Assembly (NCBI RefSeq): GCF_988242995.1
Contig: NZ_OZ547043.1
Reading direction: 5' to 3' (one strand)
Length of the DNA stretch: 64,000 nucleotides
Shown here one piece after another: positions 51,001 through 54,000 of this stretch. Position numbers: made by a program. Positions within the stretch are counted from its first letter, which is position 1. The number at the start of each line of letters is the position of its first letter.

Positions 51001-54000
51001 TATTTCGCCTCGCCACTCCTGCACTTTGTCCATGCTCTGAGTTGCCCGAAACGTACCGCTGTTGCAATTGATTCGCTGCTGGCGCTGGGGCATACGTCAG
51101 GGGCAGATACGCTGCTGGGGTTCTGGCTTGGTCAACAATTATTACAAGGAAAACCATGAAAACACTGGTTGTAGCTCTTGGGGGCAACGCCTTACTCCAG
51201 CGCGGTGAGGCGCTGACGGCAGAAAATCAATATCGCAATATTGCCAGTGCTGTACCCGCGCTGGCGCGCCTGGCCCGTTCTTATCGGCTGGCGATTGTTC
51301 ACGGCAACGGGCCGCAGGTGGGGCTGCTGGCGTTACAGAATCTGGCGTGGAAAGAGGTAGAACCGTATCCGCTGGATGTGCTGGTGGCGGAAAGTCAGGG
51401 GATGATTGGCTATATGCTGGCGCAGAGTTTGAGCGCGCAGCCGCAGATGCCGCCGGTGACGACGGTGCTGACGCGCATTGAGGTTTCGCCTGATGATCCG
51501 GCGTTTTTGCAGCCAGAAAAATTTATTGGTCCGGTTTATCAGCCAGAAGAACAAAAGGCACTGGAAGCGGCTTACGGCTGGCAGATGAAACGTGATGGTA
51601 AATATTTGCGCCGGGTGGTGGCGTCTCCGCAACCGCGTAAAATTCTCGACAGCGAAGCCATCGAGTTGTTGCTCAAAGAGGGGCATGTGGTGATTTGCAG
51701 TGGCGGCGGCGGTGTGCCTGTGACGAAAGACGGGGCAGGGAGTGAAGCAGTGATTGATAAAGATCTCGCCGCTGCGTTGCTCGCTGAGCAGATTAACGCC
51801 GATGGGCTGGTGATCCTCACCGATGCTGACGCGGTTTATGAAAACTGGGGAACGCCGCAGCAACGCGCCATTCGCCGTGCCACACCGGATGAGTTAGCGC
51901 CATTTGCCAAAGCCGATGGTTCGATGGGGCCGAAGGTAACGGCGGTGAGTGGCTATGTCAGAAGCCGTGGCAAACCTGCGTGGATTGGGGCGTTATCGCG
52001 GATTGAAGAGACGCTGGCGGGCGAAGCGGGGACCTGTATTTCGCTGTAGTCGTAGGCATTAGACATTTGTGCCTGATGCGACGCTTGATGAACTGAACCC
52101 CAAAACCTGGACAGTTTCAGTTAACCGGCTTTTTGATGCTCAGTCCGGTATTCTACCGGACTGAGTCCCCCAAGACTGAGTTTTATTCTTTTTTGATTCC
52201 AGTAAGTTATGTATTCGTTAACGGCATTTTCCAGCTCTTCTACATTTCTGTAGTCCCGGCGATAGTACATTTCTTCTTTCAGGTGACCAAAGAAGTTCTC
52301 CATTACCGCATTATCAAGGCAGTTGCCCTTGCGCGACATGCTCTGCACTAACCCTCTGTCCGCCAGGGCGGACTGATAACTTTTTATCCGGTAATGCCAT
52401 CCTTGATCACTGTGGAGCAGCGGTTTCTCCCCTTCAGCAAGGCTTTCCAGCCCCTTATTTAACATCCGCTTCACCAGCTCCTCTGTAGGCCTGCAGGCCG
52501 TTTCCCACGCCACGATTTCCCCGTTAAACAAATCAAGTATCGGGGACAGGTACAGTTTTTGTCCGCCAGCCCTGAATTCGGTGATATCTGTCACCCATTT
52601 CTCACAGGGAGCTTCCGCTTTGAACTGCCGCTGAAGGATATTTTCTGCAGCGAGTCCCATATTTCCCCGGTAAGACCGGTATTTCTTCAGGCGCACAGGA
52701 GACTTCAGGCCGAGCTGTTGCATCAGTTTTCGCACCGTTTTGCCACTGAACTTAAGACCTCTTTTCTGAAGCTCACAATGGATCCGCCGGTACCCATAAC
52801 ATCCCCGGTGTTCATGGAAGATGGAGGCTATGAGCTGTTTCACATCAGCATACTTGTCCTTAGCCTTCTGCAGTGACAGCTGGTAGTACAGCGTGCTTCT
52901 GGCCAGCCCTGCAGCCTTTAACAGGTCAGACTGGCAGTGTCCGCACCTCAGGCTCCGGATGACTTTCGTTTTTTCTCCAGCTCCTGGCGCTTTTTTTCCA
53001 GGAGATGCTCCTGCATGGCTTTCAGATATGCATTTTCTGCGCGAAGATAACGCAGCTCATTCTTCATCTCTTCCGGCGTCATGTTTGCCTCGTTTTCATG
53101 GGTATCATCAGAACGGGTCATGCTTTTCTCCTTCCTGCGCCTGATAAAGGCCTCATTACCAGATTTGCGGTAGCCTTTTATCCAGTTTTTAACCGTGTTG
53201 TGGCTGGGAATGTTAAACCGGGCAGCTACCCGGGGTAGAGACTCAGAATGCCCGAGAGCATAAAGAACCACGCAAAGTTTATCTTCAGGAGAATAGCTAC
53301 GCTTGTGTCTGCAATCCAGTGCCCGAGGACCGTGAAGAAGAAAAAGATTAATCCAGTGTGAGAGGCTGGTGTGAGAAAGTTGAAAGAGTTTTGCCGTAGA
53401 AATGATGCCTGCATGACCAGCCAGGTAATGATTTACAGCGGCAAGTTTTACTTCAAATGAATGTTTCATAAACTGCACCTTCAGATGTCAGATTATGTCC
53501 AACATTTGGGGTGCAGTTCATGACGCGTCTTATCAGGCCTACAATGGGTACCGGAGCGTTAAGCCGGATAAGGCGTTCACGCCGAATCCGGTAAGAATAT
53601 GAGCACCAGGTTAACTGAACTTACTCTGCGCCCACATCACGCCGCTGGCATACTCCGGCGGCAGCAGCGGGATTAAGGCTTCCAGCGTCGCGGTCAGACG
53701 CGATGTGTCGCTGTCGGTTAAATTCAGATGCCCCACTTTACGCCCCGGACGGACTTCTTTGTCGTACCAGTGCAGATGCACCAGCGGCAATTTCAGCCAG
53801 TCATAATTCACATCGCTACCAATCAGGTTGATCATCACCGACGGACTATTCACTACCGGTTGCGGTAACGGCAGATCGGTAATCGCCCGCAGATGCAGCT
53901 CAAACTGGCTGATGCTGGCACCGTTTTGCGTCCAGTGACCACTGTTATGCACACGCGGAGCCAGTTCGTTGATCAGCAGACCTTGCGGGGTGACAAAACA

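Follow-up and report, generated by a model that had tools for sequence, protein, structure and literature searches.

The DNA considered here is a stretch of 64,000 nucleotides (the window) from contig NZ_OZ547043.1 of NCBI RefSeq assembly GCF_988242995.1, and the feature under study is an insertion sequence (IS) located between the convergent genes ybcF and purK. The element, 1432 bp in length, interrupts the first of two repetitive extragenic palindromic (REP) units at this locus. We interpret it as an intact copy of IS1397 whose transposition split the first REP unit of the bacterial interspersed mosaic element (BIME) between ybcF and purK at its central loop and duplicated the trinucleotide TGA, and we place the probability of this reading at roughly 0.97. 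The feature is already known, being a textbook case of a known element showing its documented behaviour. The components of the locus are listed below in window coordinates, with gene names taken from homologous records; numbers beginning with L designate records used for comparison.

51156-52049, + strand: ybcF (carbamate kinase), intact, 297 aa, convergent neighbour
52071-52088, + strand: left (head) part of the interrupted Y-type REP unit, GCCTGATGCGACGCTTGA, with the first TGA included; joined directly to the right part in empty sites
52086-52088, no strand: target-site duplication, copy 1, TGA; a single TGA is present here in empty sites
52089-53520, - strand: IS1397 copy, 1432 bp, named by identity to RefSeq-annotated IS1397-family copies
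52089-52113, - strand: right terminal inverted repeat (IRR), at the far end from the start of the transposase, with terminus ...CA in the transposase orientation
52121-53469, - strand: OrfAB fusion transposase, 449 aa, with HTH_21, rve and rve_2 domains and residues D295, D355, E391 and K398
52948-53469, - strand: orfA, 173 aa, with two HTH_28 DNA-binding motifs and a Leu-rich C-terminal helix
52990-52996, - strand: slippery heptamer A AAA AAG for programmed -1 frameshifting, with a predicted stem-loop downstream
53496-53520, - strand: left terminal inverted repeat (IRL), upstream of orfA, holding a weak promoter-like pair, TGAACT-17 nt-CATAAT
53521-53523, no strand: target-site duplication, copy 2, TGA
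53521-53542, + strand: right (tail) part of the interrupted palindromic unit, TGACGCGTCTTATCAGGCCTAC
53563-53592, + strand: second palindromic unit, intact and inverted relative to the split unit, GCCGGATAAGGCGTTCACGCCGAATCCGGT; homologous to the target units in L003, L005 and L006
53611-54678, - strand: purK, intact, 355 aa, convergent neighbour, co-directional with the transposase

The boundaries of the element are marked by a TGA directly outside both ends and by imperfect terminal inverted repeats in which 21 of 25 bp are matched, with the termini TG...CA and the sequence TGAACTG... at each end. The element starts with TGAACTGAACCCCAAAACCTGGACA, and its opposite end is the inverted TGTCCAACATTTGGGGTGCAGTTCA. 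A 16-nt end motif is present as TGAACTGAACCCCAAA on the + strand (52089-52104) and as TGAACTGCACCCCAAA on the - strand (53505-53520), and these are the sole two matches in the window, for which the chance expectation is 0.08 and in which two or more matches were obtained in 0 of 100 shuffles. The original prediction, which had been made from the DNA itself, placed a 1432-bp element at 52089-53520, exact to the base, and judged it to look intact; the inverted repeats and the open orfA and orfB frames are all found.

Both transposase genes are encoded on the - strand as consecutive, partly overlapping frames, with orfA starting at an ATG at 53469 and orfB lying in the -1 frame relative to it. 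The slippery heptamer (52996-52990) is positioned in the orfA frame, and a -1 slip at this point fuses orfA and orfB into OrfAB, which terminates at the TAA at 52121-52123. OrfAB matches the NCBIfam model for IS3 family transposases (NF033516) with 387 bits against a cut-off of 160, and its Pfam domains comprise two copies of HTH_28 together with HTH_21, rve (7e-21) and rve_2 (2.5e-20). The catalytic residues D295, D355 and E391 are intact with DD(35)E spacing, and K398 follows seven residues past the glutamate. Members of the IS3 family measure about 1.2-1.55 kb and generate target duplications of 3-4 bp, and each of the family's characters (open reading frame (ORF) layout, frameshift signal, DDE core, TG...CA ends, duplication and length) is present in the window element. 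The earlier suggestion of an IS3-family orfA/orfB organisation is therefore borne out by orfA, the A AAA AAG site, an orfB with an rve/DDE domain, the TG...CA ends and the 3-bp duplication.

Removal of 52089-53520 together with one TGA produces the 37-nt GCCTGATGCGACGCTTGACGCGTCTTATCAGGCCTAC, a canonical Y-type REP palindromic unit that matches the consensus and is precisely the string that had been predicted for the restored site. The consensus used was an imperfect palindrome of about 35 nt, GCC(G/T)GATGCG(G/A)CG...CG(T/C)CTTATC(C/A)GGCCTAC, which is extragenic and has neighbours in alternating orientation. Since the split unit is accompanied by the inverted second unit at 53563-53592, the ybcF-purK intergenic region, at 52050-53610, is recognised as a BIME, and consensus match, alternating units and location between convergent genes are all observed at the site. 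An artificial empty site, consisting of 500 bp from each side with a single TGA (a 1000-bp query), matched strain NRZ14408 (L001) as one 1000-bp piece with 99.9% identity, with the palindromic unit uninterrupted at ybcF-purK. Likewise, the first palindromic unit at this locus in the K-12-like record NZ_CP053603.1 (L009) is identical to the restored unit and unsplit. The proposal that the element had entered the centre of a REP unit accordingly agrees with both empty sites, and the comparison with a K-12-like strain yields a REP unit at the empty site rather than some other sequence.

No gene is disrupted by the insertion, and one REP hairpin downstream of ybcF is lost. The transposase gene has been placed downstream of purK in the same direction, and read-through from purK into it is possible. 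The finding matters for annotation and for little beyond it: the region should be entered as a ybcF-purK BIME that carries an intact IS1397, the neighbouring genes being unbroken.

The identity of the element is indicated by its close relatives. Over its 1432 bp, the element shows 100% identity to copies in strains SCU-102 and 7CC, and many further copies match it at 99.9%; all of these are labelled 'IS3-like element IS1397 family transposase' by RefSeq/PGAP. On an identical copy, RefSeq annotates a two-piece coding sequence with the remark 'programmed frameshift', whose length corresponds to the same 449 aa. The copy at mutT-yacG in strain CFT073 (L033) is 98.8% identical to the window element, and 21 other copies, with that of CFT073 among them, are 98.8-99.4% identical to it; all sampled IS1397 copies fall within 98.8-100%. 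In the isoform rule of ISfinder, the threshold is about 95% nucleotide identity or more to the reference. IS1397 was reportedly described from natural isolates of E. coli, in work attributed to Bachellier et al. in 1997, Clement et al. in 1999 and Wilde et al. in 2001-2003. In sequence, 1432-bp length, orfA/orfB frameshift layout, 3-4 bp duplication and insertion at the centre of REP units in BIMEs, the window element does not differ in kind from IS1397, as had been suspected from its resemblance to that element; only the insertion point, in the first Y-type unit at TGA, sets it apart, its exact junction being present in 0 of the 5,426 complete E. coli genomes searched.

A different member of the IS3 family that targets REP units or belongs to the IS150 group (e.g., an ISKpn1-like element) might merely resemble IS1397. 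Other IS3-family elements, ISKpn1 and ISPsy8, likewise target REP units (PMC1525189), and membership was judged against the RefSeq-labelled and CFT073 copies rather than the ISfinder reference. However, the identity to RefSeq-named copies is complete over the entire 1432 bp, the sampled copies are confined to the narrow range given above, and CFT073, to whose copy the element is 98.8% identical, is a strain in which two copies bear the IS1397 name in print (PMC1525189). We consider such a mistaken assignment scarcely credible. In the enterobacterial genomes available to a 2006 survey, the only copies of IS1397 that it found were two in CFT073 (Tobes & Pareja 2006, PMC1525189). Matches to IS1397 are found here in 3,485 of the 5,426 complete E. 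coli genomes, at 7,614 places in all, with a near full-length copy in 1,707 genomes, and the exact OrfA protein occurs in 13,393 blocks of a public assembly index.

The target preference of IS1397 was evaluated using flanks from RefSeq hits and from contigs encoding three OrfA variants, which gave 31 further distinct sites around the chromosome. After removal of the element and one copy of the repeat, a REP palindromic unit was restored at 30 of these sites, and at the exception, between plsC and parC (L034), a similar GC-rich palindrome was restored. Among 30 tabulated sites, with that of the window included, the duplication measures 4 bp at 17 and 3 bp at 8, and is ambiguous or absent at a few. 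Only about seven palindromic units are present in 62.5 kb of the window, which puts the chance of a random insertion landing in a loop at about 0.0006. The 31 sites and that of the window, all but one restoring a consensus REP unit, provide a modern confirmation, from complete genomes, of a known target specificity, whose original description is said to date from the 1990s and to have relied on a much smaller number of sites.

An orientation preference relative to the asymmetric REP unit was considered and rejected. Across the 30 sites, read by eye, the GATAAG and GATGCG halves each form the 5' flank at 15, and the near-symmetric unit is therefore entered in either orientation. The zinT-msrQ intergenic REP provides an example within a single unit, in which SCU-102 (L002) and GCA_963693375.1 (L030) hold IS1397 in opposite orientations with the same 3-bp duplication (GCT/AGC), representing two independent hits on one trinucleotide. 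Another observation concerns the copy at ygcP-ygcQ in GCA_000692635.1 (L020, the same as L010), which measures 1791 bp instead of 1432 and contains an extra ORF of 94 aa with an HTH_28 domain between orfA and orfB. The surplus of about 359 bp may stem from a duplication or insertion within the copy, which still resides in a REP, with a 4-bp TTGA duplication. The apparent regularity that the upstream gene always reads into the transposase (12 of 12 loci) is automatic between convergent genes and was hence discarded as a finding.

By analogy with IS911, IS2, IS3 and IS150, transposition of IS1397 would proceed through a copy-out and paste-in pathway. Ordinary translation would yield OrfA, and ribosomes slipping into the -1 frame at A AAA AAG would yield the OrfAB transposase. 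OrfAB would then bind the TG...CA ends and cut one strand, giving a figure-eight that would be converted into a circle with abutted ends, and this circle would be integrated through staggered cuts 3-4 bp apart. The choice of the REP unit as a target is reportedly a property of the transposase, to judge by the title of a 2003 paper by Wilde et al.

Several points weigh against the reading of an intact and mobile IS1397 at this site. A stricter scan of 51900-53750 detected no sigma-70-like promoter, a relaxed scan returned only the weak pair TGAACT-17-CATAAT within the left end, and in a modelled circle junction the consensus scan gave no better promoter and none that was convincing. In addition, the competence of this copy for transposition is presumed from its intact sequence, and its name, while strongly supported, comes from RefSeq labels and from identity to the CFT073 copy. 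Activity with REP specificity is likewise presumed, from the intact sequence combined with polymorphism in the population, in that the present junction is missing from all of the genomes searched and many other sites are occupied.

The copy could also be a dead relic that only appears intact, having been inactivated by a subtle substitution. Dead copies of IS1397 do exist, as illustrated by a 1431-bp copy in BH100 that is annotated 'frameshifted' and by copies elsewhere that are split by ISEc21. The window element, however, retains its two open frames, slippery site, DDE triad and ends in intact form; unrelated strains hold identical copies, and no other sampled copy diverges from it by more than 1.2%. 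The perfect duplication and the absence of the junction from the searched genomes imply recent movement. Inactivation of this kind appears quite improbable to us, and the interpretation as an intact IS1397 is retained.

IS911, IS150 and IS3, models of the IS3 family, share with IS1397 the two ORFs, the -1 frameshift at A AAA AAG, the DD(35)E triad, the TG...CA ends and the 3-4 bp duplications, but have little or other target preference; IS911 also has a strong junction promoter, whereas none is evident in the window IS1397 by a simple consensus scan. ISKpn1, an IS3-family element of Klebsiella pneumoniae, likewise inserts into palindromic units, but it belongs to another species and uses Klebsiella-type units, and the likeness is drawn here from its description. 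The transposase of ISKpn1 is said, in paper titles, to determine the type of unit used. IS621, a member of the IS110 family in E. coli, is not known to generate a target duplication, and it differs from IS1397 in using an unrelated DEDD recombinase and in avoiding the central loop. It also targets REP sequences, inserting on the 3' side of the REP and outside the inverted repeat (PMC3184786). ISPsy8, ISPpu9, ISPpu10 and ISPa11 of Pseudomonas show a 100% association with the REP elements of their hosts (PMC1525189), but these elements have other hosts and other REP sequences and belong mostly to other IS families.

The distribution of the insertion in the population suggests that it is young. 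Because the junction is absent from 5,426 complete genomes and the duplication is perfect, the insertion is probably recent, which indicates that IS1397 has moved recently in this lineage, and as a strain- or lineage-specific insertion it could serve as a typing marker. The backbone at the locus is mosaic. The 25 kb to the left of the insertion (27100-52088, from the type VI secretion gene hcp to the allantoin/gcl cluster) are at most 98.3% identical to any of the 5,426 genomes and 96.7% identical to ST131, the 1 kb around the site (within 51589-54023) matches NRZ14408 at 99.9%, and copies with 100% identity to the IS occur in other strains (SCU-102 and 7CC). This mosaic pattern would be compatible with the arrival, by homologous recombination, of an imported block that already bore the insertion, in place of a transposition in this lineage. 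However, there is no candidate donor, as the junction is found in none of the complete genomes, and an imported block would itself derive from the same transposition into this unit, leaving the nature of the feature unchanged. We regard import as unlikely. The window insertion is probably independent of the other insertions in this BIME, recent and specific to a lineage that lies outside the complete genomes sampled.

IS1397 occurs elsewhere in the ybcF-purK BIME of five genomes (L003, L004, L005, L006 and L007), and in four of these the copies lie in different units with duplications of their own (GTT, TGGC, TC and GTTT). The remaining copy, in strain A36 (L007), has no target duplication and shows hybrid flanks, a Z-type REP half being paired with a Y-type half across the element. 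Similarly, the copy in strain SK0189 (L008) lacks a duplication and lies between the REP that follows gsk and the purK REP. Hybrid flanks without duplications lead us to explain both cases by recombination between two IS1397 copies, and in SK0189 the segment deleted or inverted would extend approximately from gsk to ybcF, which we take to be about 50 kb apart on the K-12 map.

The BIME is itself variable in length, comprising two units in the window and in NRZ14408, about four in the K-12-like strain and at least 10 in strains Trh52, 1105 and A20; for a single 1000-bp empty-site query, the matched record spans ranged from 1000 to about 1407 bp. The possibility that this BIME is an exceptional hot spot was rejected, since five independent insertions in approximately 1,700 IS1397-bearing genomes are unremarkable for an array of up to at least 10 units.

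The seven copies of IS1397 in the ybcF-purK BIME all have the same orientation, and orientation was therefore compared with the direction of replication, which was assigned from the GC skew of the 20-kb flanks. The sign of the skew equalled the assignment from the K-12 gene map at 11 of 11 loci in a first test and agreed with the map at later loci except L039. Among 31 independent events (the window, L002-L006 and L020-L049), the transposase lies on the lagging strand in 21-22 (p = 0.03-0.07, two-sided). The five independent insertions in the ybcF-purK BIME are all in the lagging-strand orientation, though they lie in units of both orientations, and when this BIME is counted once the proportion becomes 17-18 of 27 (p = 0.12-0.25); the later batches of sites gave only 9:6. 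The lagging-strand excess is a weak trend that falls short of a finding and is not robust. That IS1397 inserts with a modest replication-orientation bias, placing its transposase gene on the lagging strand, is in our view doubtful. If true, such a bias would point to a REP hairpin that becomes exposed at the replication fork, or to a factor associated with the fork, as the target in place of double-stranded REP DNA.

Some copies of IS1397 are themselves targets of insertion. A 1374-bp element of the IS110 family, whose RefSeq label is 'IS110-like element ISEc21 family transposase', is located at an identical point within IS1397 at several chromosomal loci, with three simple insertions (L021, approximately 11065-12435; L040/L041 and L042/L046, both 11065-12438) and one rearranged case (L022). 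It lies after nt 1115 of IS1397, at CTCCACAGTGAT^CAAGGATGG, without a duplication, and splits the codons at the second catalytic aspartate (H-S-D|Q-G-W); the corresponding uninterrupted site in the window is 52405/52406 on the - strand. One record (L043) holds the same IS1397 at yijF-gldA without ISEc21. Among the matches listed, ISEc21 overlaps an IS3-family or DDE-type transposase gene in 12 of 12, including IS911 on the E2348/69 plasmid, which suggests that its target is a conserved segment within transposase genes of the IS3 family.

Elsewhere in the window, an ORF of more than 4,197 aa enters from the window start and occupies 12-15943 on the + strand. Its C-terminal part matches a type I secretion C-terminal target domain with 33.8 bits (cut-off 17.6) and a model for Ca2+-stabilised tandem-repeat adhesins with 35.6 bits, the latter under the 50-bit cut-off. 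The ORF is followed by genes for an LssB-type permease/ATPase of the ATP-binding cassette (ABC) type from a type I secretion system (836 bits) and for a HlyD-family adaptor (328 bits), and, on these matches, ORF and transporter genes are assigned to a giant-adhesin/type I secretion locus. Two small RNAs were matched at Rfam gathering scores. The first, naRNA4 (18830-18907, - strand, 71.9 bits), coincides with another BIME, at 18831-18962, which carries no IS, and the second, STnc480 (43906-43972, + strand, 84.9 bits), lies just upstream of an ORF at 43979-44764.

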